Shown piece after piece: positions 250-22,945 of a DNA stretch of 29,740 bases. Position numbers and translations under genes: made by a program. The notes below the pieces were generated by a model. The model searched no databases, was not told where the DNA came from, and saw nothing but the letters and a program-made list of their open reading frames with translations. The first letter of the stretch is position 1. Each line of letters opens with the position of its first letter. This stretch comes from Thermoplasmatota archaeon. GTDB taxonomy: Archaea > Thermoplasmatota > Penumbrarchaeia > Penumbrarchaeales > Penumbrarchaeaceae. Where the stretch lies: the NCBI GenBank assembly GCA_965234725.1, contig CBDDUX010000072.1:1-29740 (forward strand). The letters are read 5' to 3'.

Positions 250-544
250 TTTTTTCTATCACTCTTGATCATCCCTCTTGAAGGCATTTCAGAGAAATTT
301 TTTCATTATCAGTGTCCTTTTTGATAGTTTTGAGTATGTTTTCAAACCCCGATCTACAAAATTTGGGGGTAGTTTTACTACACCATTACCATAGTTATAC
401 GACATTATAGTGTTAGAACACGATCGGATTGTGAATACTGGATTGATATAGAGAGATATGTTGGTATGATAATTACAGGAATATAATTTTATGATGAAGT
501 CCGAATTAGACCAAAATGTTTGGTGGGCCAGGCCGAGTCCGGAT
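250..544 (+). repeat. Composite repeat copy 1: arm A1 (about 250-350, upstream hairpin absent) plus arm B (351-535)
   Basis: Aligns along its length with about 22665-22945; arm B also matches 5180-5320; core AAACCCC at 344-350. Confidence 0.95.
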
Positions 545-581
545 CAAGTAATGAATCTATTTTTTCATTGATGGAATCTGA

Positions 582-1232
582 TCAACAATATCCGGTTAGT
601 ATCTCTTTCATGATCCTGATCTCGGCTTTTCTCAAATGCTCAACGAGCGTTGGTTTACTGATACTGACCTTTTCTGATAACTGAGTGCTGTTGATCTTCC
701 TTGGATACTCATAGTATCCATATCTGTCTGCTGTGAGAAGTATATCTCTTTGTTTCTCCGTCAATATCGATAGAATATCCTGTTTCCGGTAGGTTGCCTT
801 CTGGAATGATACATTCACGACCTTACCCAGATGTTCGTTGATCAAGTCGATGAATTTGTTCAAATTCTCATTATCCCCGATGCAACTCAAGGTGATCTTA
901 TCCTCAGTGATAATATTTGGTTTAGTAGTGATCAGGTCCAAGTCCTTGAAGAATTCTAGAGTGTTTTCAGGATCAAGTTCCTTAGCAATACAGATGTGTT
1001 TGTTTCCATGGGATCCTAGAACATTCAAGATCTCGATTGTCCCGATGGATCTTATATCATCTATCGATATGCCAGCTCTCGTGATAATCTCGATCAGGTC
1101 CACCGAAATGAATTCTTCCCAGTCATTCCTCAAATCATCCAGTATCTCATAGGACACTATCTTTTCAAATATGGGCCTCTGAATTTCCTTGAACTTCTCA
1201 TATGGTTCGTATTCCAGGGTCATCTTTCTCAT
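582..1232 (-). CDS. Bacterio-opsin activator-type (HTH_10) transcriptional regulator
   Basis: C-terminal LTEKQRDIL...GYYEYPRKI...LS..VSISKPTLVEHLRKAE is the HTH_10 signature; start moved to ATG 1232 (MRKMTLEY) from the ORF-track start at 1289. Confidence 0.85.
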   Translation of the reverse strand: MRKMTLEYEPYEKFKEIQRPIFEKIVSYEILDDLRNDWEEFISVDLIEIITRAGISIDDIRSIGTIEILNVLGSHGNKHICIAKELDPENTLEFFKDLDLITTKPNIITEDKITLSCIGDNENLNKFIDLINEHLGKVVNVSFQKATYRKQDILSILTEKQRDILLTADRYGYYEYPRKINSTQLSEKVSISKPTLVEHLRKAEIRIMKEILTGYC

Positions 1233-1358
1233 GTTATCAAAAGCAGATCGGCTACTGGATATTAATAATGCCATACATGAATGGCTCAATTTCCTAATAT
1301 TTCACCCGCCATAGACCTTCAGAGACCAATAGGATAATCCCAAAAACAGGTGAAAAAA

Positions 1359-2108
1359 ATGGACAAGATAAGGAATATCGATGGTGAGTGTTCAACCGGT
1401 AATGATGGAACGAATGATAAAGAGATTCCCAACTTGAGAAAGAACATGATAATTGCGGGTTGTCTTTATCTCACATTCATATTATTTTCATTCGTTGTAG
1501 ACAATTTTGCGGTCTTTGTAATGAAAGATGCTGATACCGTGATCGATAGAATAATTGAAAATGATTGGCAATTCACCTTCGGACTGATCAGTAACTTACT
1601 CTCGGCTCTTTTCTTCCTTCTGGCAGCCTGGGCTCTATATGCGTTATTGAAACCGGTCAATAAGAATCTCGCTTTGTCGTTTCTCATACTAAATTTGGTT
1701 GGTGTCGTCATCCAATGTGTGGCAGTGCATGAACTATTTGGTGCAGTACAACTTCTGAATGGGGCCGAATACCTGAATGTGATTCAGGCTGAACAACTCC
1801 ATGCCCAAGCATTGTTCCATATCAACATGTATGAAAATGGATTCATGATCGCCCAGTTGTTCTTTGGTTCCTGGCTCCTCCCTCTAGGATATCTGGTCTA
1901 CAAATCCACCTTTCTCCCAAAATGGCTCGGTATATTGCTGATGGTCGACTTCATTGCTATAGTGGGATGGTTCTTCCTTTTCTTCCTTTTCCCGAGTAAC
2001 GAAGTGATAATTGGACTCTGTCTTACAGTTAGCCTCATCGCGGAACTGGCACTCGGAGGTTTGCTTATAGTGAAAGGTATCAAGATGAAAAGTTCGATAA
2101 ATTTATAG
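1359..2108 (+). CDS. DUF4386 family membrane protein
   Basis: Multiple hydrophobic helices; IAGCLYL, LYALLKPVNKNLAL and FFGSWLLPLGYLVYKSTFLPKWLG motifs; AGGTGA RBS before ATG 1359. Confidence 0.85.
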   Translation: MDKIRNIDGECSTGNDGTNDKEIPNLRKNMIIAGCLYLTFILFSFVVDNFAVFVMKDADTVIDRIIENDWQFTFGLISNLLSALFFLLAAWALYALLKPVNKNLALSFLILNLVGVVIQCVAVHELFGAVQLLNGAEYLNVIQAEQLHAQALFHINMYENGFMIAQLFFGSWLLPLGYLVYKSTFLPKWLGILLMVDFIAIVGWFFLFFLFPSNEVIIGLCLTVSLIAELALGGLLIVKGIKMKSSINL

Positions 2109-2129
2109 TAGGCCTGGCCGAGTCAGGAT
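2100..2129 (+). repeat. Isolated degenerate copy of the arm-B terminal sequence
   Basis: 2106-2129 TAGTAGGCCTGGCCGAGTCAGGAT matches 521-544 TGGTGGGCCAGGCCGAGTCCGGAT at 20/24 positions. Confidence 0.7.
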
Positions 2130-3046
2130 GATATCTTATCCTTGAGCAATTTCTCTCTCCAAGTGTCCTGCATCCATCCATCTTTGAGTACTGAGGATTG
2201 AACATTCTTGATACCATCACAATCCTTGATTGCTTCCATAAGCTCATTATATTTCTTAATGGAAGGGGACCAAGCATAACTTGAGATAAGTCCGGGGACA
2301 TTGCTTAGAGTAGTGATGACGAAAAGTGATCCGCTGAATTTTTCATATAATTCATCACGGATCTTCTTCTGATCAACACCTTCTTCTAAGATTACGGCGA
2401 GCATAGCGGTAAGACCGGATGCATTCCCGGGGCGCCAATCGATACTGAAATCAATCGCTCCATTCTCTATCAACCGATCAAGATGCCGCTTCACTGTTCG
2501 TGCTGATGCATCACATTTCTCAGCAATATCTCCGATAGGCAATCGCGCATCCTCATAGAGTGCATGAATGATCTGAAAATCGAGTCGGGTCAGCTCTGAT
2601 GGACCTTTGTATCGAGTATTCAGGACCTTCTCACCGAATTTTACTTGAGAATCCAAAAGTACATTCGGATTCGGGATCTCGATTTTCTTTCTCAGATATT
2701 CGACCAGGGAGTCCAGGTCCTTGATATCCCGGATGATGCATTCCAGGAAGAAATGAGGTTGTCCTTCGCCGATAAATACTGAATGCACCAGATCGTTTTT
2801 CCTTAGTCCTTTTACTACATCGTCCGGTTTGCCCTGGGAGATGCCTTCCACAAGCACTCTAATAGCATGAAGATATCCTATCGACAGTGAGGTTTTAAAA
2901 CAATTGATTAGTCCTTCATCTTTTAGTATCTGTATACGGCGATGTGTGGCCTGAATGGAAATATTCAATCTGTCTGAAAGCTCACGAATAGGGGTCCTTG
3001 AGTTGGTGAAGAGCATCTGGCATAATCGAATGTCGGTCTCGTCCAT
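2123..3046 (-). CDS. Lrp/AsnC family regulator with two tandem HTH-plus-effector units
   Basis: MDETDIRLCQMLFTNSRTPIRELS and LTRLDFQIIHALYEDARLPIGDIAEK are two AsnC-type HTH starts. Confidence 0.85.
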   Translation of the reverse strand: MDETDIRLCQMLFTNSRTPIRELSDRLNISIQATHRRIQILKDEGLINCFKTSLSIGYLHAIRVLVEGISQGKPDDVVKGLRKNDLVHSVFIGEGQPHFFLECIIRDIKDLDSLVEYLRKKIEIPNPNVLLDSQVKFGEKVLNTRYKGPSELTRLDFQIIHALYEDARLPIGDIAEKCDASARTVKRHLDRLIENGAIDFSIDWRPGNASGLTAMLAVILEEGVDQKKIRDELYEKFSGSLFVITTLSNVPGLISSYAWSPSIKKYNELMEAIKDCDGIKNVQSSVLKDGWMQDTWREKLLKDKISS

Positions 3047-3082
3047 GGTAGAGAAATGAATGATGATATTCTTATTTGTAAA

Positions 3083-3454
3083 TTATCTTGGGATATTCTC
3101 TTCCATCAATGAGATCAGGAATTCCAATTCATCCTTTATCTTGCCAGATGTGACCTTGCATTCCGCAAAGATCCATCCACCTTCCTCGCTTGTCAAGTAA
3201 TATCCCCTGTCAGTAAGAATACCTGCAATGTCCATGACATGCTTAATTCGAGAGGGATCAACCGGTCTATTCCCCTCTAACAACCGAACAAGCAGTTCCA
3301 TGGAGAAGTATATCATGCTGTTTTCTTCGATCCTTGCAACGAGCCCGATCTTGAACGTATCTCCTCTGGCAACCACAACATACCCCTCGCCATCATCCGA
3401 GGATCTAGCTACTTCGGTCAGTTTCTCGACATTGATATCCGGATTCTTTCCCAT
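3083..3454 (-). CDS. Hypothetical protein (123 aa)
   Basis: Closely packed in a co-oriented run, protein-like composition, no recognised motif. Confidence 0.7.
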   Translation of the reverse strand: MGKNPDINVEKLTEVARSSDDGEGYVVVARGDTFKIGLVARIEENSMIYFSMELLVRLLEGNRPVDPSRIKHVMDIAGILTDRGYYLTSEEGGWIFAECKVTSGKIKDELEFLISLMEENIPR

Positions 3455-3470
3455 ATCAAGCTCTCCATGC

Positions 3471-3998
3471 CTACTCGACCTTTATTTTATGAATCTCCTT
3501 AACTGCCTTTCCTGTCAGGTTCTGAATATCCTGCTCATTCAGTCGATATGCTGAAGTGTCCTGTCTGGTTGGTTTAGGATCGGACGGTAACAGATCAGCT
3601 ATGTGAAGATCGATCACTGAAGCTGGTTTCTTTCCGATTCTTTTGGTCAGTTCATCGGAAAGTTTTGGATTCGGACCAAGGGCTCCTCCGCTTATCGAGA
3701 TGAAAGCATATTGCTTGATATGGTCCTTGAGTTCCTTGAAGCAAGCTCGAAGAGGCGATGCAACCTGCCCCATCCATACGGGTCCAACGAAGATTATCAA
3801 TCCATTTGTATCCAGATCGTCAATCGATTCGTTGATCTTCGGTGTTCTATTAAATATTACATCTATCGCGATCCTTCCAATGGTTCTCTTCTTCGGTTCA
3901 GTGATCTTGATATGCTCCGCTCCAAGATCAGCAGCAATGCTTTTTGCCAGACCATCGTTGTTGCCTGTCAACGAGTATGATATCACAAATTTCTTCAT
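3471..3998 (-). CDS. Flavodoxin-like protein
   Basis: N-terminal YSLTGNN phosphate-binding loop and IIFVGPVWMG; GGAGG RBS. Confidence 0.85.
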   Translation of the reverse strand: MKKFVISYSLTGNNDGLAKSIAADLGAEHIKITEPKKRTIGRIAIDVIFNRTPKINESIDDLDTNGLIIFVGPVWMGQVASPLRACFKELKDHIKQYAFISISGGALGPNPKLSDELTKRIGKKPASVIDLHIADLLPSDPKPTRQDTSAYRLNEQDIQNLTGKAVKEIHKIKVE

Positions 3999-4016
3999 TT
4001 TTCTCCCTCCTTTTAA

Positions 4017-4784
4017 TCATCTGCTAGCAGCCATTCTTACTGCTGCAAAGTCGAAGATCTTTCCCATCATTTTCTTGATCGGATTCATTCTGACCGGATA
4101 GTAGTAATCCGATTCGAACCATCCTTCCCTTTCAAAGTATGAAAAATCTCGATATTCATCATTCAGTATCAATCGAGCACTAGTTCTGGACATCCTGAAT
4201 ATCATCAACTTGAACAGAGTGGGGGACGGGTATTCCTTCTTGACCAATTGAGAAAAAAACTTACTGCTATGTTTGTCAAGGGCTGTATCAATCTTTCTCT
4301 GTCCTTTTTCTGTCATGGGTTCGAGTGTTGTAAGAACAGAACCCCTTACAACATTGAAACCGAGCCTGTCACCGACGAAGCTGAGATACTTGACAATATC
4401 CTTTCCTCCCATCATTCCCTGTGTCACAATGCATGTGAATGCTTTTCCAAAGAAAGCAGGTCGATGTGAGTAGAAGCTCAACCTGTCAATTAATAATTTC
4501 ATGAGGGCTGATTCATGGAAGAAGTAGTTGGGAGATGCAAACACAATGCCATCGGATCCCTCAATTTTCTCAATGAGTATATCCCTATCATCCTTAAGTG
4601 GGCATGATTTCTCATTTTTTTCCATGCAGATCTTGCACCCCTTGCAGGATTTCAGATCATAATCGCTGAGTTGTACTATCTCATAATCTACACCGCCTTT
4701 CTTCTGCAGATTTTCCATGAATTGCACAGAAGCATCATATGTATGATTCTTCTGAGCGCTTCCGACGAAAGCGGTCACCTTCAT
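4017..4784 (-). CDS. Iron-sulfur flavoprotein / NADPH-dependent FMN reductase family protein
   Basis: MKVTAFVGS start, CKGCKIC...C cluster motif, DGIVFASPNY...MKLLIDRL; the ORF-track extension to 5096 runs through non-coding repeat DNA. Confidence 0.85.
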   Translation of the reverse strand: MKVTAFVGSAQKNHTYDASVQFMENLQKKGGVDYEIVQLSDYDLKSCKGCKICMEKNEKSCPLKDDRDILIEKIEGSDGIVFASPNYFFHESALMKLLIDRLSFYSHRPAFFGKAFTCIVTQGMMGGKDIVKYLSFVGDRLGFNVVRGSVLTTLEPMTEKGQRKIDTALDKHSSKFFSQLVKKEYPSPTLFKLMIFRMSRTSARLILNDEYRDFSYFEREGWFESDYYYPVRMNPIKKMMGKIFDFAAVRMAASR

Positions 4785-5034
4785 TTTCTTTCCCTTGATT
4801 TGGATTTTAATCACCTTGGATTGTTTGTAGGCATCTGTTGCCTCTGAAAAATCCGATGTGGAAGAGTATAATAATGGCATGTTCACCATGGATTTGAAGA
4901 ATGGACACACAATATCCTCCGATTTGGACGATCTTTCATCCTCTCGTTTGATAAATCGGACAAAATACTTTCGTGAAAAATTGGCCAGTCCTGTATTTTG
5001 TAGGTTCTGATAATTCACGTTGTAAAATAATTGG

Positions 5035-5075
5035 AGAAGCCCCTTCCGACGCTTTGAAAGGGGCTTCTTTTTTCT
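5035..5075 (+). terminator. GC-rich hairpin plus T-tract at the start of arm A2 (terminator-like)
   Basis: AGAAGCCCCTT...AAGGGGCTTCT followed by TTTTTCT; repeated at 14802-14840. Confidence 0.5.
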
Positions 5076-5360
5076 CTTGGTCCGGACCGCTTCCATCCGT
5101 CATCCGCTCGGAAATCTTTTCTCGAAAAGGGGTTTTTCGGGGCATTTTCCAGGTTATTTGACTTAACTAGATAAACCCCATCTACAAAATTTGGGGGTTG
5201 TTTTACGACACCACGACATAGTTACACGACACAATAGGGTTAGAACACGACAGCATGATTTGCACTGGATCTTTGATGAGAGAAAGATAAATCGGTATGA
5301 TATTTAAGTGGAACATAATATCGATACATCTGTAATGATGGTGACTTCGCTACGATTAAT
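5035..5360 (+). repeat. Composite repeat copy 2: arm A2 (5035-5179) plus diverged arm B (5180-about 5345)
   Basis: Left part matches 14802-14945; right part matches 352-485 and 22762-22897; core AAACCCC at 5173-5179. Confidence 0.95.
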
Positions 5361-5621
5361 AGAATATCCGGGGATTGCATTTATAGAAAACATGAACTTT
5401 AAAAAGGGTATCTGAAAGCATTTGAAAGTTGAAATCAATCATCTAAAATATCGACATCGCTTTACCTCTGAAAGAGTCCCCATGAAGATCCTCTATTCCG
5501 TTTTCGAACCATGTGCCCCGGGCCATCTTCTAACAATAAAGGAACACATGGTTCTCTTGAAGGCAAATGATATGGTTCTTTCGGGATCGGTTCGGGACAT
5601 AATCTGAGAGGGGGAGATTAG

Positions 5622-7049
5622 ATGGAAATACAGTATGTCGGTGAGATCGAGTATCCGGACGGATATACGGGAGATCATATTCTCGATTTCGACAATTTCA
5701 GCCCCAACGAGATGGACCGGATCCTCTATCATCCGTTCAATGAGGATTGTCCTTTTCACCTGGGCGAGGACCTGGGTGATCTTGATGATGTACCTCTGTT
5801 GAACCACCTGATGATCTATTTGGAATATATGAAAGAAAACGCGCCCCTGAAACTGACCCAGAAAGGGAATCTACCGCTCTCTTTCTGCAGATATCTGGCC
5901 GATAGGGGATTGGTGGAGGGAAGGATCTTGTCCGACCTTCATCTCAATTCAGAAGAAGATATCACATATATGACATTCATGAAACTTATAACCCGGAAAA
6001 TGGGGTTGGTCTCGAAAAGGTACAACAGATTCTCGTTGTCGGGAAAGGGGAAGAAGTTCCTGAAATCGGACTATGCCGAAAGGTACCGGATCCTTTTCAA
6101 ACACATGACAACCGGTTTCAACTGGGGGTATTTCGACCGGTATCCTCATAGCTGGATTGTACAAGGAGGGTTTGCCTTCTCGATCTTTCTCTTTCAAAAA
6201 TACGGAGAGGAGAAGAGACCTCCCGGGTTCTATTCCGACAGATTCAGGATAGCTTTTCCCAACCTGTATCGGGATTTCGACGGCCGGGATGATGATCCAA
6301 TAAGGGCATATGAGAGAGCCTACCTCATCAGGGTGATAGAGAGGTTCATGTTCAGAATGGGTCTTGTCGAGGTAGAATACGATCCTCGAAACAGATATGA
6401 ACCGGTTTCCGTGCGGAAGAATCCACTCATCGACAGAGTGATCGTCTGGGATCGTGATGTATTCGATTTCGACAAGGAAGGATATATCCTAAAGAAAAAA
6501 GAGAAAATGAAAAAAAGAATGGAGATGGAAAGAAAGAAAAAACTGAATTCAAAGTGCGGAAGAAAAGTTCTATCGAGGACGGAAGAATGGAAATCGAAGC
6601 TCTACACCTTGAAAGTATATCTGATCCAGGGTCCTCTTCCAGAAGACTTCAACGAGGAGGTGGTTTCGAGAACGATACAGATCAGGGGTAACCAGACCCT
6701 TGAGGACCTCCATCATGTGATCTTCAAGGCGTTTGACAGATGGGAGGAACACATGTATGAATTTCTGCTCGGAGAGGGTCCTTTCGACAGATCGGCGGTT
6801 TATTCACTTACGTCGGGGTCAGACCCGGAACTAGATGACTCTCTGGGAAGTGTGAAGGATACGACCATCGATTCTCTGGGGCTTGAAGAGGGAAGAGATT
6901 TCGGTTACCGGTTCGATTTCGGTGATGAATGGCTACATCAGATCGACGTTGTCGGGACCGATGAGAACGAATCGAGTGAAAAATATCCGAGGATAATCGA
7001 AATGACCGGAAAGAGCCCCCCGCAATATCCCAATCCTGATGAGGAATGA
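5622..7049 (+). CDS. Plasmid pRiA4b ORF-3 family domain protein with a long uncharacterised N-terminal domain
   Basis: C-terminal RTIQIRGNQTLEDLHHVIFKAFDRWEEHMYEF...YRFDFGDEWLHQI...YPRII....GKSPPQYP. Confidence 0.85.
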   Translation: MEIQYVGEIEYPDGYTGDHILDFDNFSPNEMDRILYHPFNEDCPFHLGEDLGDLDDVPLLNHLMIYLEYMKENAPLKLTQKGNLPLSFCRYLADRGLVEGRILSDLHLNSEEDITYMTFMKLITRKMGLVSKRYNRFSLSGKGKKFLKSDYAERYRILFKHMTTGFNWGYFDRYPHSWIVQGGFAFSIFLFQKYGEEKRPPGFYSDRFRIAFPNLYRDFDGRDDDPIRAYERAYLIRVIERFMFRMGLVEVEYDPRNRYEPVSVRKNPLIDRVIVWDRDVFDFDKEGYILKKKEKMKKRMEMERKKKLNSKCGRKVLSRTEEWKSKLYTLKVYLIQGPLPEDFNEEVVSRTIQIRGNQTLEDLHHVIFKAFDRWEEHMYEFLLGEGPFDRSAVYSLTSGSDPELDDSLGSVKDTTIDSLGLEEGRDFGYRFDFGDEWLHQIDVVGTDENESSEKYPRIIEMTGKSPPQYPNPDEE

Positions 7050-7101
7050 TTTTTCACGATATCCGGCAGATATAATATTCATCTCCTCGATACAATATCT
7101 G

Positions 7102-8673
7102 GTGCAGACCAACATCTACGATTTTCTGAAAAATCAGAAAAAGATCGAACAGAAGTTCACCGCAGAAGATGGCTACATATCTCACCCTCTGGTCAAGGAG
7201 AGATCGATACTTGCGAAGGATTTCCAGCTCAACATCGCTTCAAGCGCACTGGAGAGTTCCACGCTGGTGGTCCTTCCAACAGGTATGGGCAAGACCATAA
7301 TTGCCATCCTGGTATCTGCAGAGATATTATCTAATGAAAGTGGAAAGATCCTCATGGTCTCGCCCACAAGACCTCTTACGGAACAGCATTTTCATTCGTT
7401 TCAGAGATTCCTCTCGATCGAAGGAATGGCGATGTTCTCAGGATCGATGAAACCGGCAAAGAGAGTGGAGGAATGGAAAAAAGCAAGGGTCGTCTTCTCG
7501 ACCCCCCAGACCATCAACAACGACCTGAACAAGGAGAGGTATGATCTTTCCGATGTGTCGCTCCTCATAGTCGATGAGGCTCACAGAAGTGTAGGTGATT
7601 ATGCATACACGGGGATATTATCTCATTATGATGGCCATGTTCTGGCATTGACCGCTTCACCAGGCGGAGACAGCAAGAAGATAATGGAAGTAATAGAGAA
7701 TCTGGATGTGGACAATATCGAGGTCAGAACCTCCGGGGATGATGATGTAAAGGATCATGTCAAGGTGATAGATATCGAATGGAGGAGGACCGAACTTCCC
7801 GAGGATATGAATGAAATAAAAGTCCTTGTGGATGACTTCCTGCAAGAAAGGGTCAGAAAGCTCCGAAAACTGGGATTTCTCAGAGATGCAAGACCCGGGA
7901 TGGTCTCCAAGAAGAAGCTTTTGAAGGCAAGGGACGAGATACTGAAGAAATACATCAGGAACAAAGGACTCATGTTCGGGTCGCTGCACAATCAGGCGCA
8001 GGCCGTTCTGGCCGATCACATGCTCGAACTTCTGGAGACCCAGGGGGTCGTTCAATGCAGAATGTACATCGACAGAATGAGAGAAAAAACAAAAAAATCG
8101 AAGGCGGAGAAGGGGTTCCTTAAGGATCCGAGGATTTCTGGATCCGTTGGCAGATTGGAGAGATTCGAAGGACCCTCTCATCCCAAATTGGACCTACTTG
8201 AGGATATTGTGAGGAGATCGGTTGAAAATGGTGAAACACTGATCATCTTCACCCAGATCAGGGACACCATACCTTTGATAATGGATAGATTGGATGGATT
8301 GAGGATCGAGAGATTCGTTGGGCAGGCTAAGGGCAAAGATGGAAGAGGATTGAAGCAGAAGGAGCAGAAGGAAATACTTGACCGATTCAGAAAACGGGAG
8401 TTCGATGTTCTCATCGCAACCTCGGTTGCGGAGGAGGGGATCGATATTCCCGATGTGGACCTGGTCCTGTTCTACGAACCCATCCCTTCGGAGATCAGGA
8501 CCATTCAGCGTAGGGGGAGGACCGGCAGGTCCTCCACTGGTAAGGTGATCATCCTGATCACGAGCGGAACCCGGGACGAAGCCTACTACTGGGCGGAAGG
8601 TTCGAGAGAGAAGAAGATGGGACGGATAATGTCATGGTTAAGCCATGCGGAAGGAGGAGCGAATAATGAGTGA
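7102..8673 (+). CDS. hef: Hef/FANCM-like SF2 DEAH helicase without the ERCC4 nuclease domain
   Basis: YISHPLVK, LPTGMGKT, DEAH, LTASPG, ATSVAEEGIDIP, QRRGRTGR, GTRDEAYYW; likely GTG start at 7102 after TATAAT at 7071 (ORF track starts at 7039). Confidence 0.9.
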   Translation: MQTNIYDFLKNQKKIEQKFTAEDGYISHPLVKERSILAKDFQLNIASSALESSTLVVLPTGMGKTIIAILVSAEILSNESGKILMVSPTRPLTEQHFHSFQRFLSIEGMAMFSGSMKPAKRVEEWKKARVVFSTPQTINNDLNKERYDLSDVSLLIVDEAHRSVGDYAYTGILSHYDGHVLALTASPGGDSKKIMEVIENLDVDNIEVRTSGDDDVKDHVKVIDIEWRRTELPEDMNEIKVLVDDFLQERVRKLRKLGFLRDARPGMVSKKKLLKARDEILKKYIRNKGLMFGSLHNQAQAVLADHMLELLETQGVVQCRMYIDRMREKTKKSKAEKGFLKDPRISGSVGRLERFEGPSHPKLDLLEDIVRRSVENGETLIIFTQIRDTIPLIMDRLDGLRIERFVGQAKGKDGRGLKQKEQKEILDRFRKREFDVLIATSVAEEGIDIPDVDLVLFYEPIPSEIRTIQRRGRTGRSSTGKVIILITSGTRDEAYYWAEGSREKKMGRIMSWLSHAEGGANNE

Positions 8674-8766
8674 TCCATATCGTGTGAATAATATTTTATC
8701 ACCTTTGCCATAACCGAAGAAAGTGGAACAAATATGATACTATGAAACATGCTGCGGTGATCGATC

Positions 8767-9603
8767 TTGTCCAGAAGGAGAAAGAGCAGGGAAAAAAGAA
8801 AGAAAGGTCCTTCCAGGCAGACCGGGAAAGGTAATAAAACCGGGACCGGGGAAATTGTGAGAAGAAATGAAACAGACCGACTTCTCGATAACGCCCACTC
8901 CTTATCTTCGATAGAGAAAAAGAGGAAAGAGATCCATAAAAAAATGATCGAGCGCTCCGGATTCATTGACGACGGCAACTTCAACTCAATAGCTCCTGCC
9001 GATGTCAAATTGATGTTCCAATTATACGATGAGATATTTCTGGGGAATTACATCAATGATAACTATCCCGACAGGATCATGTTCAAGCTTTCAAGGAGAA
9101 TGACCCGCTCCGGTGGAAAGACCGAGTACCATTCGAACAGAGATATCTATGTTATCACACTGTCAAGTACTCTTCTCTTTCAGTCGTTCAATGGTGAAGG
9201 CAGGGATATCACCCTCTGCGGGATCGTCTGCAAGGATCGGCTGGAGGCTGCGATGGTGATAATGGAACATGAGATTGTACATCTCATCGAATATGTTCTG
9301 TATGGTGATACAAACTGCTCAAGCCGACGCTATCTGTCCCTCGGAAGCAGGATATTCGGACATACCGATGTAAGGCACCAGCTCGTAACCGGAAGAGAGG
9401 TTGCTGACAAAGAATACGGTCTGAAAGTTAGTGACAGAGTATCATTCGAATTCAAGGGCGAGATCAGGAAAGGTGTGATCTCCAGAATAACGAAGAGAGC
9501 CACAGTTATGGTGGAAGATCCGAAGGGGTATTACAAGGACCTGAGCGGTAAGAATTATACCAAGTACTACATTCCTATGGGTCACCTGAAAAAAACAAGT
9601 TGA
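8767..9603 (+). CDS. SprT-like zinc metalloprotease with a C-terminal KOW/SH3-like segment
   Basis: SRRMTRSGGKT and HEIVH (HExxH) with downstream C/H residues; C-terminal LKVSDRVSFEFKGEIRKGVISRI; GGTGA RBS before TTG. Confidence 0.75.
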   Translation: MSRRRKSREKRKKGPSRQTGKGNKTGTGEIVRRNETDRLLDNAHSLSSIEKKRKEIHKKMIERSGFIDDGNFNSIAPADVKLMFQLYDEIFLGNYINDNYPDRIMFKLSRRMTRSGGKTEYHSNRDIYVITLSSTLLFQSFNGEGRDITLCGIVCKDRLEAAMVIMEHEIVHLIEYVLYGDTNCSSRRYLSLGSRIFGHTDVRHQLVTGREVADKEYGLKVSDRVSFEFKGEIRKGVISRITKRATVMVEDPKGYYKDLSGKNYTKYYIPMGHLKKTS

Positions 9604-9676
9604 TTCCATCCTGAATCACAACACCATCTAATCAGTGCCGTCGTGATTTTTAAGTATCATGATAATATGGGAAAAG

Positions 9677-13277: not shown

Positions 13278-13300
13278 ATCTATGATTCCTATTCAAAGAT

Positions 13301-14689: not shown

Positions 14690-14801
14690 TACATTCATGA
14701 ATTAATCCATGCTTCATCTTGAAACATCCTCCATAATATGGATGGTCACATGTGAAATCATCTTCTGTTACAATATGTTAAAGACTTTAAGAAAAAGTAG
14801 T

Positions 14802-14992
14802 GAAGCCCCTTCCGACGCATTAAAAGGGGCTTCTTTTTCTTCTTGGTCCGAATCTCTTCTTTCCATCATCCGCTTAGAAATCTTTTCTCGAAAAGGGGTT
14901 TTTCGGAGCATTTTCCAGATCATTTGACTTAACTAGATAAACCCCGTCCCCGACACTTATCATTCTATAATATTAGATATATTGTATATTAT
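14802..14992 (+). repeat. Composite repeat copy 3: arm A2 (14802-14945) plus arm C (14946-about 14992)
   Basis: Left part matches 5036-5179; right part GTCCCCGACACTT...TTAG.TAT..ATTG.ATATTAT matches 18124-18166. Confidence 0.95.
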
Positions 14993-14994
14993 TT

Positions 14995-15639
14995 TTAATG
15001 TTTATCTTTGTTTTGTCCTTGACACTTCCCTTTGAATAATAATATTGCTAATACTATGATCCAAATGAAGTAGGTATAAACATTGATCCTCTCGATCAAT
15101 CCCATATATTCTTCCCAATTTGCAATCACAATTGGACTCATTCCACCCGAAATTACAAGGATACCCACCGTGATGAATGTAAAGTTCCTGAACTTCTTTA
15201 AATTGTACTTCCTTTTCATTCCAATCCCGATCAATATCAGTGCTGGGAAGATCATAATCACTGATAATTCGATGAGAACAAGATGCATAGTACCTGGAAA
15301 GGTTGCCTCAGTTCCTACTGGATCCATTGGAAATATCGTTGTTGTTAATGTTGTGCAAATTGACATCACCAAAAGGAGTACGCCTCCAAGGAAGATCAGC
15401 TTGTTTTCTTTGAACTTGTGATTTGAAATGATGTTGATACCAAAAACGATCCCCATGAACGATGAGGAGACCAATATTAAGCTGAAAAGAAGTCTATGGT
15501 CAGATCCTGACTCGCTCAATTCGCTAATGGCATTTGAAACGAAATTGTACCCTGGATAAATGATATGACCTAGGATGTCTGCAAGAAGGTATGAGAGAGT
15601 GGAACCGATCCCTGCCAGGTAAAAATATTTATTATTCAT
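14995..15639 (-). CDS. DUF998 family membrane protein
   Basis: YPGYNFVSNAISELS, FPMDP, GTMH and GLIERI motifs; several transmembrane helices. Confidence 0.85.
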   Translation of the reverse strand: MNNKYFYLAGIGSTLSYLLADILGHIIYPGYNFVSNAISELSESGSDHRLLFSLILVSSSFMGIVFGINIISNHKFKENKLIFLGGVLLLVMSICTTLTTTIFPMDPVGTEATFPGTMHLVLIELSVIMIFPALILIGIGMKRKYNLKKFRNFTFITVGILVISGGMSPIVIANWEEYMGLIERINVYTYFIWIIVLAILLFKGKCQGQNKDKH

Positions 15640-15663
15640 GATTAACCTCTTTTATGAAATATA

Positions 15664-15996
15664 TCATTTCAATTGGCTAAGTATCTTTTGAAAATTCTTG
15701 TAGGGTAGAGAGAGGTGTCCTTCATTTTCCATGAACTTCGATATCAGGGGGCTAATCAAGTAAAGTTCTTTTTTCTTGAATGTTGATAAACCCACCCCAG
15801 GTCTATCGATCGCTATCAACCTGACTCCAACTTTTTCCGATATCTCACCTGCCTTTAACATGATTGGATTTAACCTGCTTCCGGGGAATCCATGGAAGTA
15901 GAGAATTGGGAATCCCTTCGGCTCACAGTACTCTGCATATCCGACTTTTCTTCCCGACTCAAGATCTATGACCTTGTTCTGTTTTTCATTTCCCAT
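15664..15996 (-). pseudogene. Alpha/beta hydrolase remnant (frameshift, nonsense codon, large internal deletion)
   Basis: N-terminal YFHGFPGSR...DRPGVGLS is followed closely by C-terminal NEGHLSL; no GxSxG; the shifted frame reads KRTLLD*PPDIE. Confidence 0.8.
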
Positions 15997-16042
15997 TTCC
16001 CTACCTCAGGATTGAATGCCGACTGTTTTGCTAAACATTTTG

Positions 16043-16822
16043 TTACGGGGACTTAATTCCCTTGATCAACAAGTATCCGCAAAATCCGAATTCTCCAATG
16101 ATCTCGAGTCCATACCCAGGCAAAGTTATCACCTCGGGAGCCCCTGGTATGAGGAAGAACACAAATGTCTCCAATAGGAACCCGAAGCAAGCTAATACTA
16201 ACAGCACCCCGAATGCTTTTGGGAAGTTTTCTGACTTGTATACCAGGATCCCTAGAGGAAGAAGCCATAGTCCATGGAATATCGTCGCGATCATTACACC
16301 AGCCTCTCTGAATTCGAGGATAGTCATAACCACTGAATTTAACTGTTCCGTGCTGAATATTGATAGATGTTCGCCCCCATTCAGAAGAACCAGTGGAGCA
16401 ATATGAAAGAGCATATTGATCAGCATTACTGGAACACTGACCAGAACGAAAACCACCACCAAGGTAGCAAGGTTCTTATCGAGTTTGTTGAGTAATTTGT
16501 AGAACGCTAATGGTAATAGCATGAAACAAATGATCATAAGAATATCACTTGTGAAGCTTAACCGGTAAAGCCACTCTGAATCCTTGATATTATCTGCTGT
16601 AGCTGTAGCATCTCCAGAAACTATCAAATTCATTCGGATAACCTGTGCTATAATACCGAACACTATGAGGCCAAGATAGAGCAATCCTGCAATTCTTGCA
16701 ACCTTTCGCTTTGATTTCACCGTTTCGGCATTTGTGATCTCCCTTCCATCATTTTTCGATATAATTTCATTCTTCTTCACAATGCTCGGATTTGATTTTT
16801 TTTCAACCATATTCATCACCAT
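16043..16822 (-). CDS. DUF4386 family membrane protein
   Basis: ARIAGLLYL, GDATATADNI, IFHGLWLLPLGILVYKSENFPKAFG; clearly related to 1359-2108. Confidence 0.85.
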   Translation of the reverse strand: MVMNMVEKKSNPSIVKKNEIISKNDGREITNAETVKSKRKVARIAGLLYLGLIVFGIIAQVIRMNLIVSGDATATADNIKDSEWLYRLSFTSDILMIICFMLLPLAFYKLLNKLDKNLATLVVVFVLVSVPVMLINMLFHIAPLVLLNGGEHLSIFSTEQLNSVVMTILEFREAGVMIATIFHGLWLLPLGILVYKSENFPKAFGVLLVLACFGFLLETFVFFLIPGAPEVITLPGYGLEIIGEFGFCGYLLIKGIKSP

Positions 16823-16826
16823 AATT

Positions 16827-17435
16827 CTAAACGAGTTTCATACCCAATTTTTCGGCTCTTTGATAATAATCCTGTAGATCTTTATGCCATACATCACCCG
16901 CATATAGCTCCCCAACGGTATCTGCGTTCAATGAATCCTTGATTACTCCTTTGATCTGTGGAGTGGCCCAATTACAAAATCTCTTGAATTTCGAGGGGAT
17001 CATTCCTGAAACAGCAATTATAACAGCTTTTCTTTTCTTTTCAGATCTGGGAGCTGGACACCCCTTTACTATGACATAACTTTTTTCTGGTTTAGCAAAG
17101 GTCCAGCATATCCTTTCAAGGAATGTCATCATCAATGCTGAAGCATAACCCATATGGATCGGAGTTCCCATGATCAGAGCATCAGCTTTCAGAAGCTCCT
17201 CGTTGATTTTGTCCATATCATCTCTTATCACACATTTTGCCAGAGGCCCATCAGTATCACTTCTCCAACACGCAAGGCAATCCCTGCAATAATCGATCTT
17301 CTTCTCAGAGAGAAAGAACTTCTCTACAACGGCATTCTGATCTTTCTTCTTCACTCCTTCTATGGCCTTATCAATAAGTGTATCAGTATTCTTTCCTTTT
17401 CTAGGACTTCCAACAATTGCTACTACATTCATCAC
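16827..17435 (-). CDS. Iron-sulfur flavoprotein / FMN reductase family protein
   Basis: VAIVGSPRKGKNT, CRDCLAC...CVIRDDM, ADALIMGTP...MMTFLERI. Confidence 0.9.
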   Translation of the reverse strand: MMNVVAIVGSPRKGKNTDTLIDKAIEGVKKKDQNAVVEKFFLSEKKIDYCRDCLACWRSDTDGPLAKCVIRDDMDKINEELLKADALIMGTPIHMGYASALMMTFLERICWTFAKPEKSYVIVKGCPAPRSEKKRKAVIIAVSGMIPSKFKRFCNWATPQIKGVIKDSLNADTVGELYAGDVWHKDLQDYYQRAEKLGMKLV

Positions 17436-17926
17436 TATCCCTCCTCATTGAAATTGTTTTGAAGGTGATCAACCAACCGTTGTACGAATCCATTGAATTG
17501 TTGGATTTCTTTATCAGAATAGATCTCGAAGATCTTGAAGATCAAATATTCATGCTCTTCCAATCTTGATTCCCAGTAATCCCAGTTCTTTTGGGTGGTT
17601 CTCAACCTAAGTACTCTCTTATCATCCTCATCTTTCTCTATCGAAACGAATCCCCTACTTTGAAGTCTTGTTGCAGTTTCCTTAACACTTTGATGTGATG
17701 TGGAAGTTTTCTTGGAGACTTCTTTGATCGATGGTGCATGGTCGAAAGATTCTATTGAAGCAATTAGCAAGAACTGCTTTATTGTTAGTTCATCCTTCTT
17801 AAGCGCCCTATTGCTAATGCTCTCAAGCTTGAGACTTTGCAGGAATATGTTCGTGAATAGATGATCGATCTCATCGCGAACCTTTTTGTTTTCTCTTCTC
17901 TGAATAGGTTCGTTATTTTGTTGCAT
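17435..17926 (-). CDS. MarR family transcriptional regulator
   Basis: LTIKQFLLI...PSIKEVS...TSHQSVK...LQSRGFV....DEDDKRVLRL winged helix. Confidence 0.9.
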   Translation of the reverse strand: MQQNNEPIQRRENKKVRDEIDHLFTNIFLQSLKLESISNRALKKDELTIKQFLLIASIESFDHAPSIKEVSKKTSTSHQSVKETATRLQSRGFVSIEKDEDDKRVLRLRTTQKNWDYWESRLEEHEYLIFKIFEIYSDKEIQQFNGFVQRLVDHLQNNFNEEG

Positions 17927-17930
17927 AAGA

Positions 17931-17984
17931 ATAGGTAACTCCTTACCTATATTTATAACCTTCTAATAGGTAAGTCCTTACCCT
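17931..17984 (-). promoter_or_regulatory. MarR promoter: TATA box flanked by two palindromic operators
   Basis: ATAGGTAA-ctcc-TTACCTAT (17931-17950) and ATAGGTAA-gtcc-TTACCCT (17966-17984) flank minus-strand TTATAAAT (17951-17958). Confidence 0.8.
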
Positions 17985-18006
17985 TCAGTCATTATGGAAT
18001 AGATAT

Positions 18007-18190
18007 GGGCCTCCGAAGAGGCCCTTTTCCTCAATCCAGTTAAATCTCTCTCAAATGCATCCAGAAGAGATTCTTTCATTTTGGGGGTCGTTTTTGACAA
18101 TTTTGAGTACGTTTTCAAACCCTGTCCCCGACACTTTTCATAATTTAGGTATTTATTGCATATTATATGGCTATTTTTAGGTGTCGGGTT
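18007..18190 (+). repeat. Composite repeat copy 4: arm A1 (18007-18123) plus arm C (18124-about 18190)
   Basis: Hairpin GGGCCTC-cgaa-GAGGCCC; ATTCTTTCATTTT and TTTTGAGTACGTTTTCAAACCC match copies 1 and 5; GTCCCCGACACTT matches copy 3. Confidence 0.9.
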
Positions 18191-18210
18191 CCAATAACGT
18201 ACCCGTCACC

Positions 18211-21200
18211 TCATTCTTTTCCTTCTAGGTCCTCGATCTGTTCGTGAATGTAGTCTTTCAACTCAGAAGTTGTCAAACCTTCTTCATCCTTTTCAGGAGC
18301 AGGAATTCCATATAGATCCTCATAGGAAGGAGCACTGGATTCCTTTTCTTTTGCAAGAGCAGCTCTCTCTTCCTCTTCTTTCTTGCGAGCAGCTTCATCC
18401 ATTTTCTTCTTCATTTTGAATAATAAGAAGATTCCTAAAGCAAGAAGGATGATCACTACAGCAATGATGATTATCATGAACAATGACGATGATGAACTCT
18501 CAGCTTTACCCACTTCTATCTCGAAGGTTGCAGTATTTGTTTCAATTCCATCTGTAACCTCAACAGTAACTGTATGGAGCATCACCTGATTGTCTTTCGG
18601 TGTCCACCTTATCATGCCTGTCTCATCACTGATCGTCATCCCATCTGGAGCTTCAGCCAATGAATATCTCAAATTGGAAAGGTCCTCCGAATCCTGATCT
18701 GTGCAGGAGATCTTGAATTTGAAATTAGTTACAGCTGAGATCTTCTGGTCCTCAATGGTCTTGAATGTAGGTTTGTAGTTGACCCTGAATGACATCACTC
18801 CTGAAGTGCATAAACCGTCAGAACAACCGTCATTTGGGATAACTGTCCAGAAGTAAGTCTTTCCTGGATCCAGATCTGAGAGAGTGATGTTTGTACCATC
18901 GTATTCTTCTTCATAGATGGCCTCTTCTCGATATCCCTGGACATAAACCTCTGTTTGGTGAAGATATATGTCGTAAGTAATTGATTCTCCTTCAGGATCT
19001 ATACCTTCCCAGCTGAGAATAGCACCGGTAGAAGCTCCTTTTTCACCATCTCCAGGACCAATTAACTCCACCTCCGGGGGTTCAGAAGCTAATACTGTGA
19101 TAGTGAAGGTCCTATTGGTAAATGCAAGTCCATCCCAGGCTGATACAATTACTTCAAGTTTGAACGGAGCTTTATCGAAAATATGGATGTCAGCTGTCCA
19201 GTTTATTTGTCCGGTATCTTCATCAATTGTAATATCGGAATCCGGTGCGGATGAAACGGAATAATATGTTGTATCTCCATCATAATCCGTAGCGTTCACA
19301 TCGAAGAGATATGTTTTTCCATGAACAATATTTATATTTTCAGGAAAATCTACCCAGGCAGGTCTATCATTGACGTTTAGAACCTCCAATGTGAAGTTAT
19401 GGAAATCGAACTCATCCGAAAGGTCCCAGACTGAAACGTTTACGAAGTAGGACCCAACATCCATTGGTCCTGGATTTCCGGACAGTGTTCCCATTTCATA
19501 ATCGATTGAAAGGAAGCCAGCATCGGTATGGAGTTTCCATTTGATCTCATCTCCGGAATCGATTTCAAGAGCTTGATAATTTCTGAGGAATGGATCGTCT
19601 TGATACACTGACATGGTGTCATTTGTAATGATTACTGGAGGGTCGTTAACATCTAATACCTTGATATCGAACTGTCTTGAATCCCAACCCTCATTTCCGT
19701 CATGTACAGATACAGTGACTGTTACCGTTCCTACATCTTCATTTGTAGGTGATCCCTTCAGAATACCGGAGTGAGAATCCATTGTGAGCCATTCAGCATT
19801 CGAGGAGAGGTAATAAGTCACATTGCCTTGCCCATCATCATCACATTTGTAATCTGTCTCGTAATACTCCCCTTGATTGATCTCAGTGATGTCAGTTCCA
19901 AAAAGGTTCGGGTTGGTATTCGAGACAAATATCCTGAACTTGTGAGATGAGAAATGTCCTTCTGTATCTGTCAGGTTCAATTCAACGGTCGTCAGTCCTA
20001 CCTCTGTATTATCTGGTGTCCCGTATAGTTCCTTTGTTCCTTGGTCGAACTGGAGCCAATCCATGTCGGTCCTTAATGTCCAGGTTGGATTAGTCACCCA
20101 TCCAAAGTTCCAGTATGCTTCTCGATATTCAATATCTTCATAAGCGGTTTTATTATCCTGGAAAGGTCGAATTTGGACTGGAGTATGAACTTTGAAAATA
20201 TCACTTTTTAATGGATTCCTCACGGAGGTTGCCGTGATGTTCTCGAACCAGAGCATACTAGTTGAAATATTCAGATTCCCAACATACAATCCCGTATTGA
20301 TCCCTGTCTCTCTGCAAACGATCAGCGGGGAGAAACTCAAGTTATTATCACTGGACAGGTTTAGGAATGCCTTATCCCGAAGAAGTGGATTAGCATCATC
20401 TCCTGTGATTGCGAAGTATGCAGTCTCTCCATAATCCAATATTTCAGTGGTAGTCGTCAGGCCTTCATCTTCATAGACCGTTACTGAACCCACAGTTGTT
20501 GGTCTGAAGGGATAGTCGATCACAATGTCGATATCGAATGATGGGCCCGCTTTGGGATAAATATTTGTAACGTCGAAATAAATAGATCTAGGTGGGATTA
20601 TGAACTGCCCACGATAGACACCAGTGTTCAATCCTGTCTCCCTCAATCTGATCTTACTCAATCCAATCGGACTGGATTGGTATGTGATATTGATAGTTGC
20701 CAAATCCTGATGTGTCGCATTTCCATCTTCGCCGGTTAATTCCAAGTAAAGTGTTTGTCCGATGTCAAATGTTCTGGATGGATTTGAATAAGGTTCAGTG
20801 TAGATCTCGAATGTATCTACCCTGGTTGGTTCGTAGTTTAACATCCCTGTCACGAAATAGATCTTTCCACCACCATTTCCTCCCTCATCATTGTTTCTGG
20901 CTCCAACAATTATGTCTTCCATTCCATCCCCGTTGATATCTCCTTGTATCTCCAAAGCAGTCCCAAATCTATCTCCTGGAAATTCTCCAACAATGGTACT
21001 ATCAGCAATCGAAATATTTGCATTTGTAGGCCACCCACTTGTTCTTCCGTTGATGATATATACCTTCCCACGGTTCTCTCCCTGATAGTCAAATTGATTG
21101 CTGCAGACTACGATCTCATCTAATCCATCTCCATCTATATCTTCCAGGAAGTCTATGTCTAGTCCCAAAGAATCTCGATCATCCTCACCTAAATAGGATG

Positions 21201-22383
21201 CATCTGCATTAGATAGTGAGGTATCCATTGACAACCCTGTTTCTTTCCCAAGGATCAAATAGAACTTCCCATCAAAATCCATCCCGGGTGAATCCCAAGA
21301 ATTTGCGCCGATCAGGATATCGTCATATCCATCTCCATTTACATCTCCTCCACCGGCCAATCCATTCCCAATATAATCGAGATATTGGGTATCTTCTTCA
21401 ACAAAAGAAGCATCGGCATTTGAAAGAGATGTTCCATAGGACCAACCAGATGATTTACCCAGTATCAAGTAAATCTCCCCCCTGTCAGGAACTCCCATGC
21501 CTTGGGATCCATATGGGGCACCGATCAAAAAATCACCATATCCATCACCGTTCACATCCCCAGCTGAAGCCATGTTGTTCCCCACTCTTTGACCCTGGCC
21601 AGTTTCTCTGACGAAGGAAGCATCAGCGGTATTAATTGGTGTATTTTGGGACCAAATATTCGATTTTCCCAGAAATAAAAATGCTTCTCCGTCCTGATAG
21701 GGGGCCCCGATGAGTATGTCATCATATCCATCATTGTTCACATCCCCTGCTCCTGCTACAGTTGATCCCAAACGGATGGCTGAACTTGGAACAAAAGTTG
21801 CATCTGCATTTGACAAACTAACATCCTTTGCCCAATTCTGGGTCGGCTTCCCAAGAATAAGGTAGACCTTTCCCCAATAACTATTGATATTGTAATCTCC
21901 GATCAAGATGTCATCATAACCATCGTCATTGACATCTCCAACTATCTCAACACTGCATCCTGCCATACCATCAGGATCTTCACCAATGAAGGATGCATCA
22001 GTATCTGAGACATTCAATCCGATATCAAGAGAACCACTTCCGAAATAGACGTAGATCTTACCACCATCTACTCCATCGTGATTGTAGCTTGGTAATCCTA
22101 TCACAAGATCGTCAAATCCATCTCCGTTCACATCACCAGAATTTGACATCTGAGGTGCTGTGTAGAATCCTCCCCCACTATTGCTCCCAATTCTACTTCC
22201 AGGAAAGCCTAGAAGTGATCCTTCGGCAAGATCACTGATGTTCTGGTTCAGATCTCCCCTACCATTGTGATTGAATTTCAGAGGAGAATTTACCCCTTTT
22301 AAATTACTTGAATAAACACCAGGTAAAGGTAGGATTAAAGTTAGCAACAATACTATTGCCCAAACTTGGATGGATTTTTTCAC
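18211..22383 (-). CDS. Membrane-anchored surface protein: FG-GAP (integrin-alpha-like) propeller plus cadherin/He_PIG-like Ig repeats
   Basis: Signal peptide after GTG 22383; seven GDVNGDGxDD-type repeats; Ig repeats (V.DVNDPP, GxLxGxP...DVG); C-terminal transmembrane helix and charged tail. Confidence 0.9.
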   Translation of the reverse strand: MKKSIQVWAIVLLLTLILPLPGVYSSNLKGVNSPLKFNHNGRGDLNQNISDLAEGSLLGFPGSRIGSNSGGGFYTAPQMSNSGDVNGDGFDDLVIGLPSYNHDGVDGGKIYVYFGSGSLDIGLNVSDTDASFIGEDPDGMAGCSVEIVGDVNDDGYDDILIGDYNINSYWGKVYLILGKPTQNWAKDVSLSNADATFVPSSAIRLGSTVAGAGDVNNDGYDDILIGAPYQDGEAFLFLGKSNIWSQNTPINTADASFVRETGQGQRVGNNMASAGDVNGDGYGDFLIGAPYGSQGMGVPDRGEIYLILGKSSGWSYGTSLSNADASFVEEDTQYLDYIGNGLAGGGDVNGDGYDDILIGANSWDSPGMDFDGKFYLILGKETGLSMDTSLSNADASYLGEDDRDSLGLDIDFLEDIDGDGLDEIVVCSNQFDYQGENRGKVYIINGRTSGWPTNANISIADSTIVGEFPGDRFGTALEIQGDINGDGMEDIIVGARNNDEGGNGGGKIYFVTGMLNYEPTRVDTFEIYTEPYSNPSRTFDIGQTLYLELTGEDGNATHQDLATINITYQSSPIGLSKIRLRETGLNTGVYRGQFIIPPRSIYFDVTNIYPKAGPSFDIDIVIDYPFRPTTVGSVTVYEDEGLTTTTEILDYGETAYFAITGDDANPLLRDKAFLNLSSDNNLSFSPLIVCRETGINTGLYVGNLNISTSMLWFENITATSVRNPLKSDIFKVHTPVQIRPFQDNKTAYEDIEYREAYWNFGWVTNPTWTLRTDMDWLQFDQGTKELYGTPDNTEVGLTTVELNLTDTEGHFSSHKFRIFVSNTNPNLFGTDITEINQGEYYETDYKCDDDGQGNVTYYLSSNAEWLTMDSHSGILKGSPTNEDVGTVTVTVSVHDGNEGWDSRQFDIKVLDVNDPPVIITNDTMSVYQDDPFLRNYQALEIDSGDEIKWKLHTDAGFLSIDYEMGTLSGNPGPMDVGSYFVNVSVWDLSDEFDFHNFTLEVLNVNDRPAWVDFPENINIVHGKTYLFDVNATDYDGDTTYYSVSSAPDSDITIDEDTGQINWTADIHIFDKAPFKLEVIVSAWDGLAFTNRTFTITVLASEPPEVELIGPGDGEKGASTGAILSWEGIDPEGESITYDIYLHQTEVYVQGYREEAIYEEEYDGTNITLSDLDPGKTYFWTVIPNDGCSDGLCTSGVMSFRVNYKPTFKTIEDQKISAVTNFKFKISCTDQDSEDLSNLRYSLAEAPDGMTISDETGMIRWTPKDNQVMLHTVTVEVTDGIETNTATFEIEVGKAESSSSSLFMIIIIAVVIILLALGIFLLFKMKKKMDEAARKKEEEERAALAKEKESSAPSYEDLYGIPAPEKDEEGLTTSELKDYIHEQIEDLEGKE

Positions 22384-22642
22384 TTCATTACCCCCTATTG
22401 GAAAACCAGGGCCCCCATTGCCCATCGATAAAGGAAAATGGAGAAATCTCAACCATTTCCTTACATCCAATAAATGCAATTCCGAATTATAACTGTTTCG
22501 TTTAATTTAATAGAAATAATGTATTATTGTTAATATAAATGTTGTTAGATGATAATTTATATGATTCATGGTTTATAAATCTCAACTCGCGTTAATATAG
22601 CTAAAAAGAATTTCTCCTGCTATTTCAGATTAAGGCTAGATG

Positions 22643-22945
22643 TAGGCCCTATAAGGGGTCCTATTCCTTTTGCTCCTGATCATCTCTCTGAAGGCATTTC
22701 AGAGAAATTCTTTCATTTTCGATATCATTTTTAACAGTTTTGAGGCTGTTTTCAAACCCCGATCTACCAAATTTGGGATAGTTTTACGACACCATTAACA
22801 TGGTTATTCGACACAATAGGGCTAGAACACGACAGGATTGTGAATACTGGACCAGATATGAATAGATATGTTGGTATGATAATTAAAGGAATATAATTCT
22901 GTGATGAAGCCTGAATTAGCCCAAAATGTTTGGTGGGCCAGGTCG
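22643..22945 (+). repeat. Composite repeat copy 5: arm A1 (22643-22760) plus arm B (22761-22945)
   Basis: Colinear with 250-535; starts with hairpin TAGGCCCT-ataa-GGGGTCCTA; core AAACCCC at 22754-22760; ends TGGTGGGCCAGGTCG. Confidence 0.95.

Follow-up and report, generated by a model that had tools for sequence, protein, structure and literature searches.

Combinatorial arm junctions in a Thermoplasmatota contig as probable hybrid attachment sites of tandem integration at a tRNA-Met(CAU) gene

Five intergenic junctions, at which different left and right arms meet at a short AAACCCY core, were analyzed in a 29.7-kb contig of a Thermoplasmatota archaeon of the family Penumbrarchaeaceae (CBDDUX010000072.1). 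The whole contig (29,740 nt) is the window referred to below, and its genome (G000; other G numbers denote family relatives) comprises 3.54 Mb in 114 contigs and is 97.65% complete. The junctions are most probably hybrid attachment (att) sites that arose as elements integrated again and again, in a site-specific manner, at the 3' end of a tRNA-Met(CAU) gene that contains an intron, since the core together with the start of one right arm, C, corresponded to the final 18 nt of that gene, located on another contig (C75:14887-15003). The mechanism is of a known kind, and its form is unusual in being large, standardised and mostly integrase-less, with a lineage of arms that lacks the tRNA tail.

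Each of the five junctions was found, with its flanks, where an earlier note made from the letters of the window had placed it, and the sole further plus-strand AAACCCY of the window (11814) was intragenic and without arms. The arms were compared by gap-penalised alignment score per base over the 70 nt beside the core. The scores separated the left arms A1 and A2 (A1-A1 0.69-0.80, A2-A2 0.93, A1-A2 0.37-0.40) as well as the right arms B and C (B-B 0.76-0.80, C-C 0.54, B-C 0.30-0.36), and all four left/right pairings reported in the note were present. Its treatment of C as one arm was not upheld: the two C copies were common mainly in the 18-nt tRNA tail and then belonged to different classes. 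By their repeat register, B and the repeat-bearing C-type arms formed a single architecture. The blocks between junctions, described there as functionally unrelated, carried different gene families by Pfam. The junction features of the window, all on the plus strand, were the following.

251..343, +, left arm A1, distal end of the preceding unit (HMM match 251-350; class 6)
344..351, +, core 1, B type: 3' part of the tRNA-Met T-loop plus T-stem only, without acceptor-stem copy
352..535, +, right arm B, phased repeats at 378 and 400; homology with the 22754 copy up to 535
5036..5172, +, left arm A2, 136 nt; decayed tRNA-tail-like motif in a hairpin, then a T run
5173..5180, +, core 2, B type
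5181..5319, +, right arm B, repeats at 5206, 5227 and 5248
14802..14938, +, left arm A2, second copy
14939..14956, +, core 3 and exact copy of the final 18 nt of tRNA-Met(CAU)
18008..18116, +, left arm A1 (HMM match), distal hairpin at 18008
18117..18134, +, core 4 and tRNA-Met tail copy with 1 mismatch
22645..22753, +, left arm A1, distal hairpin at 22645
22754..22761, +, core 5, B type
22762..22945, +, right arm B, repeats at 22787, 22809 and 22830

The C arm at core 4 extended to about 18194 and contained an inverted partial copy at 18181-18188. The B arm at 22762..22945 showed 89% identity over 191 nt to a B arm in another genus, where the left arm was different.

The core was located in the T-loop and T-stem of the tRNA-Met, and arm C opened with the acceptor stem; among the collected junctions, the tRNA T-arm preceded the core in the genomes of several relatives. 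ARAGORN misplaces the intron of the C75 gene and calls it Ser here and Met in G005. Two more CAU tRNAs were present in the genome, and the C75 gene is presumably that of the elongator tRNA. The tail of this tRNA-Met was found in 13 copies within one mismatch, compared with at most 5 for any other tRNA tested. A 17-nt pattern of core plus C gave 15 matches in the genome and none for its reversed control, and was matched in 17 of 24 family genomes, where the control gave a single match in total. Three junctions followed the tRNA-Met on its own contig. The direct repeats were thus those of the tRNA 3' end with the intact gene at the head, in full for C-type sites and over only 7-8 nt for B-type sites. 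Because the core belongs to the T-arm and arm C begins with the acceptor stem, the sites, which the earlier note had not recognised, belong with known tandem accretions at tRNA genes. Copies of tRNA tails spaced 140-215 bp were also seen behind tRNA-Arg (4 copies), Gln, Gly, Ser and Leu (C20, C5, C109, C2, C76, C10, C77), and similar hairpin units of 180-280 bp were observed behind tRNA-Met in relatives. The Rfam scan of the window returned no family.

Permissive motif scans yielded mostly chance matches and were replaced by a flank-similarity filter, which kept 66 of 146 candidates; 5 near-matches in coding DNA were dropped, two decayed sites were then added by eye and one overlapping site was removed, giving 67 sites. 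Relatives accounted for 38 of these and this genome for 29, namely the tRNA plus 28 junctions spread over 11 contigs. With thresholds set by us, the 29 sites fell into 7 left classes and 15 right classes in 24 combinations. Conservation, which partly reflects site selection, reached 79-100% from position 0 to +7 and 62-93% from +8 to +20, compared with 38-66% on the left side. Tandem layout was evident in 17 complete units of 253-9766 bp (58.7 kb in total), 15 of them below the genome GC, and none of the 17 contained any of the genome's 7 tyrosine recombinase matches. Named records with the junction pattern or the integrase described below came from Thermoplasmatales or Thermoplasmatota archaea.

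A filled and an empty site were found in two congeners. In G009, a 4751-bp element lay between the tRNA-Met and a second core, and G023 was empty, agreeing with G009 at all 60 nt before the first core and at 37 of the 39 nt to the right of the second. Further filled/empty pairs were formed by an extra 192-193-bp unit in G017 and G008 compared with G013. The G009 element encoded a 388-aa Xer-like integrase with PF00589 and PF13495, below the IntI and XerA cut-offs, which ended about 80 nt from the tRNA core and pointed at it; the far (distal) arm of the element resembled A1. At iE<1e-6 the C-terminal tail of this integrase had three matches (whole in G009, remnants in G021 and G004), all of which ended no more than about 110 nt from a core and pointed towards it. 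Seven close protein homologues of the G009 integrase were found as sequences alone. Metagenome scans confirmed no further G009 integrase, and the scan with the integrase alignment gave 80 loci at no more than 37% identity. Upstream of the integrase, the G009 element also carried a 94-aa protein (L157:3302-3586) that looked histone-fold-like by eye and had no match in Pfam, NCBIfam or PHROG.

The earlier proposal of att-type hybrid recombination junctions was supported. Gene content changed at the core as proposed there, both in the G009/G023 pair and in homologous units that follow different left arms and begin at most 4 nt from a core. The recombinase had been placed outside the window; none was found inside it, and the linked Xer-like integrase was found only in relatives. 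Other tyrosine recombinases of the genome (C3, C19, C36, C64, C68) were away from junctions and were rejected, as were a serine resolvase (C62, fragment on C66) and IS110 transposases (C42, C64) on contigs without junctions.

In the proposed mechanism, each unit would run from core through proximal arm (B or C), cargo and distal arm (A) to the next core. At each junction, one unit would then end with its distal arm and its successor begin with a proximal arm, so that arms combine freely. Strand exchange would occur within the 7-8 nt common to all junctions (the 3' part of the T-loop and the T-stem), where the exact crossover presumably lies. C-type arms carry the last 18 nt of the tRNA, and the gene would therefore be rebuilt. 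Catalysis would probably fall to a Xer-like tyrosine integrase like the complete one of G009, which may bind the acceptor-stem-like hexamer beside the core as well as the phased hexamer copies at about +33, +55 and +76. The units of this genome may have lost the integrase or never had it, and would move when another element supplies the enzyme, presumably acting in trans. The window may lie in the tRNA-Met island itself; synteny placed C22 in that island but not the window contig, C72, which was not joined to the tRNA contig.

In the repeat-bearing right arms, copies of the acceptor-stem hexamer stood at about +12, +33, +55 and +76. Beyond +20, 54 of 58 hexamer matches fell in three windows, compared with a mean of 2.75 and a maximum of 8 in 300 shuffles; the test covered 27 of the 67 arms, which were picked by class and are related, and the three windows were chosen after looking. 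The B arms of the window and the integrase-side arms of G009 and G021 agreed in this register, with 21-22-bp phasing. The spacing suggests accessory binding sites two helical turns apart. Phased direct repeats recall DR1 and DR2 of attI1. The B arms kept only the 7-8-nt core and had no hexamer at +12, and insertion of a B unit at the tRNA would therefore disrupt the acceptor stem. B-type sites made up 11 of the 67 sites, in four genomes of three genera, and stood behind none of 13 intact tRNAs, a count that is weak alone (about 0.055 if B were 20% everywhere). Since B units lack the part that restores the tRNA, they probably insert at internal junctions. In 10 of 12 A2 copies (0 of 240 shuffles), a decayed tail-like motif was found 134-137 nt before the core, which may represent an additional binding site or else a mini-unit without genes; the distal hairpins and T runs of A1 and A2 may act as terminators. 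Derivation of B from the end of a different tRNA, or from an inverted tRNA-Thr site, was rejected: the geometry did not fit and no Thr tail was found. Three A1-like arms (C37:14702, C110:1913, C33:5162) turned into a common different ending with a C run instead of the Met core, and are possibly arms for another target.

A unit was found to be common to two species. The unit at G000:C106 12240 showed 99.3% identity over 1875 bp to a G004 unit and started at the core, with different neighbours in the two genomes; other long matches between G000 and G004 had 67-92% identity. Immediately left of an A1 junction on C106 lay a CRISPR-Cas locus (G000:C106:251-11777), its genes including a Cas1 fusion and Cas3-like ones; this locus may be cargo.

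Several results weigh against integration at the tRNA-Met as the whole account. No integrase of the G009 clade was found in this nearly complete assembly, and the G009-type integrase was complete in only 1 of 401 genomes searched. On C44 and C102, junctions lay next to other integrase modules, located at tRNA-Thr genes, and C27 had one decayed junction beside another core gene; these settings mean that not all junctions lie in one tRNA-Met island. The earlier note had tied both arms and gene-content changes to the core, and this held only in part: 7 of 20 A1-like arms in the genome stopped short of a core, and some common cargo started 49-123 nt off cores, including a toxin-antitoxin-like block common with G004 that started 96 and 60 nt from them. 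The 99.3% unit had 7 interior differences, but others clustered just past the left tail and over the final 30 nt of the A arm; the clusters suggest that homologous exchange within arms may have fixed the ends of this unit. No excised circle was detected among the contigs of four sequencing runs, of which X2, X4 and X5 held short pieces only. High-depth joints in the runs matched other junctions of this genome, and three joints at depth 5-10 carried different arm letters; because these may come from other strains, no circle is claimed.

Beyond integration at the tRNA-Met, a wider reading is possible though doubtful, namely a family-wide cassette system that became integron-like by convergence. 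Integrase-less units with standardised arms would be cut out and put back one at a time by a rare Xer-like integrase acting in trans, the B lineage would be independent of the tRNA, with junctions as its only targets, and would seed other loci, and A2 and the 180-280-bp gene-less units would be minimal members.

It is unlikely that the junctions are old scars now shuffled, integrase-free, by homologous recombination or gene conversion between arms of 100-190 nt. The mosaic ends of the 99.3% unit, the common blocks off the cores, the coreless A1 fragments and the lack of a matching integrase in the assembly would all fit this. Exchange inside like arms cannot create new class pairings, and the switch of homology at the core between unrelated arm classes (24 combinations at 29 sites) therefore counts against it. 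So do the conservation of positions 0 to +7 over diverging flanks, in part an effect of site selection, and the clean insertion in G009. Homologous exchange between arms probably acts as well, and can stand side by side with site-specific integration at the tRNA-Met.

Resident integrases were also considered. Two paralogous three-gene modules (173 aa, a 310-aa XerA-like integrase, 177 aa) lie behind tRNA-Thr genes:

C44:19666-21807, three-gene module behind tRNA-Thr
C102:5401-8345, paralogous three-gene module behind tRNA-Thr

A similar first gene starts behind a third tRNA-Thr, on C20. If these enzymes acted on the AAACCCY sites and used the neighbouring B arm for docking in the manner of attI, an integron-like platform would result. 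They were the only recombinases adjoining junctions in this genome; both copies lay on the repeat side of a B-type core, about 0.8 and 1.8 kb away, and were transcribed towards it, and no tRNA-Thr tail was found at the far end of the modules on either contig. We nevertheless consider this improbable. The 310-aa family occurred in 29 of 401 genomes, 29 of 30 other loci examined were near some tRNA (one call is doubtful), and none of the 30 had a Met-type core within about 1.5 kb. The family was not found at E<=1e-50 in G001, G003, G004 or G007, all of which have junctions, and the repeat register of the B arms was that of arms abutting the other, G009-type integrase.

Insertion by a casposase, with the 18-nt tail as a target-site duplication, is very improbable. 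Casposon arrays are likewise tandem insertions at tRNA ends with a short direct repeat between elements (PMC5137440), and a solo, casposase-like Cas1 (408-aa frame) was present on another contig (G000:C59:27-1240). Unlike casposons, the units had no linked casposase and no terminal inverted repeats (0 of 34 units at p<0.01), B junctions were common in only 7-8 nt, and the G009-linked enzyme was a tyrosine recombinase. The solo Cas1 lay about 1.1 kb from a tRNA-Leu(CAG) on a contig without a junction; Cas1 matches in the genome were confined to it and the C106 CRISPR locus, with none in the window units. Transposition by HUH elements with hairpin ends (IS200/IS605, RAYT) was rejected, the Y1 transposase PF01797 not being found in the assembly.

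A true integron array, that is a cluster of attC sites lacking the integron integrase (CALIN) with divergent attC hairpins, is hardly credible either. The gene blocks are in tandem, the core contains AAC, and some short gene-less units behind relatives' tRNA fold into long hairpins (z to -6.5). The best scores to IntI (TIGR02249, cut-off 265 bits) were 33 for a genome-scan piece, 50-55 for the 310-aa pair and 97 for G009. The right arms of the window showed no attC-like fold on either strand compared with shuffles (z -1.5 to +0.9; no covariance-model search was made), the core was a tRNA tail, and units reached 9.8 kb. Given the tRNA-tail core, the tandem units and the G009 integrase element, the junctions are better described as attR/attL-type hybrids of mostly integrase-less elements.

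The following comparisons with known systems concern the accessible parts of the cited sources. In tandem accretion at tRNA 3' ends, CIMEs without integrase keep attL and attR, form chimeric junctions and are joined by new elements entering at the gene end (PMC5704250), and the units here resemble them in these respects. Unlike CIMEs as described there, 28 junctions with standardised arms common to a family occur in one archaeal genome, B junctions have no gene-restoring fragment, no conjugation genes were seen in the window units, and single integrase-less units seem to pass between species. Prochlorococcus tycheposon islands (bioRxiv 10.1101/2020.12.28.424599) likewise grow behind tRNA genes, including a tRNA-Met, with partial tRNA copies between elements, integrase remnants and few autonomous elements. 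Their att site is about 40 nt, compared with 18 or 7-8 nt here; they are defined by carrying integrases, whereas the present units are mostly integrase-less and in an archaeal host, and phased proximal repeats are not among the tycheposon features described in that text. Archaeal elements with Xer-like or SNJ2-type integrases (PMC8371274, PMC6563490) share the PF13495+PF00589 layout, short att sites in tRNA genes, tandem integration and integrated forms without integrase; no integrase-less arrays dozens long, nor phased repeats by the core, are reported in what was accessible of these sources. Integrons, including archaeal ones (bioRxiv 10.1101/2022.02.06.479319), are similar in outcome only, as arrays reshuffled by a recombinase that the cassettes do not encode. 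Unlike them, the system here has no IntI and no attC fold, its sites are tRNA-derived and double-stranded, and its units are multi-kb, multi-gene and in both orientations. No description of arrays in this archaeal family was found in the literature searched (few subscription papers, no supplements).

A target (the tRNA-Met T-arm), a candidate enzyme and candidate binding sites can thus be named for a large accessory-gene pool of uncultured Thermoplasmatota, which includes surface proteins, toxin-antitoxin-like pairs and perhaps a CRISPR-Cas locus, and the named parts open the system to in vitro testing. If tail-less B units do insert only at internal junctions, tandem tRNA islands can become integron-like arrays without IntI or attC.

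The units of the window and their cargo were as follows.

344..5172, unit 1, 4829 bp, GC 0.417: HTH_10, DUF4386, AsnC-type regulator, FMN reductase and two unassigned genes; without integrase
5173..14938, unit 2, 9766 bp, GC 0.444: pRiA4b ORF3-like, DEAD helicase, SprT-like, SEC-C/TPR and archaeal ATPase-DUF234; without integrase
14939..18116, unit 3, 3178 bp, GC 0.392: DUF998, hydrolase fragment, DUF4386, FMN reductase, MarR
18117..22753, unit 4, 4637 bp, GC 0.415: one FG-GAP/Ig surface protein
22997..29431, minus strand, surface protein of 2144 aa (fascin, NHL) as cargo to the right of core 5; the window does not reach the far end of the unit

No recombinase and no Cas1 was found among the Pfam families of these blocks. 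Units 1 and 2 matched relatives gene by gene and not end to end, and the interior of unit 3 had no match in 23 other family genomes. Homologues of unit 4 were found at four other places, starting no more than 4 nt from a core and following different left arms, in one case directly behind the tRNA. FG-GAP surface proteins formed a large family of paralogues (window 18211-22479; G000 C17, C22, C27, C37, C44, C85, C92, C110), several of which adjoined arm fragments at other loci. Joint movement of arm B and the 2144-aa gene was considered and rejected, since the paralogue on C44 has the opposite orientation.

In the sequencing run that held the window best, one of the pieces listed crossed 22754 with more than 31 letters on each side, and by the same criterion none of the other 7 pieces listed crossed 5173, 14939 or 18117. 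Depth in this run fell from about 2000 left of 14939 to about 1200 right of it, units 1 and 4 being equal in GC; this hints weakly at two strains. The window ends (1-70 and 29690-29740) resembled the ends of C102 and C22, which suggests repeats that broke the assembly.

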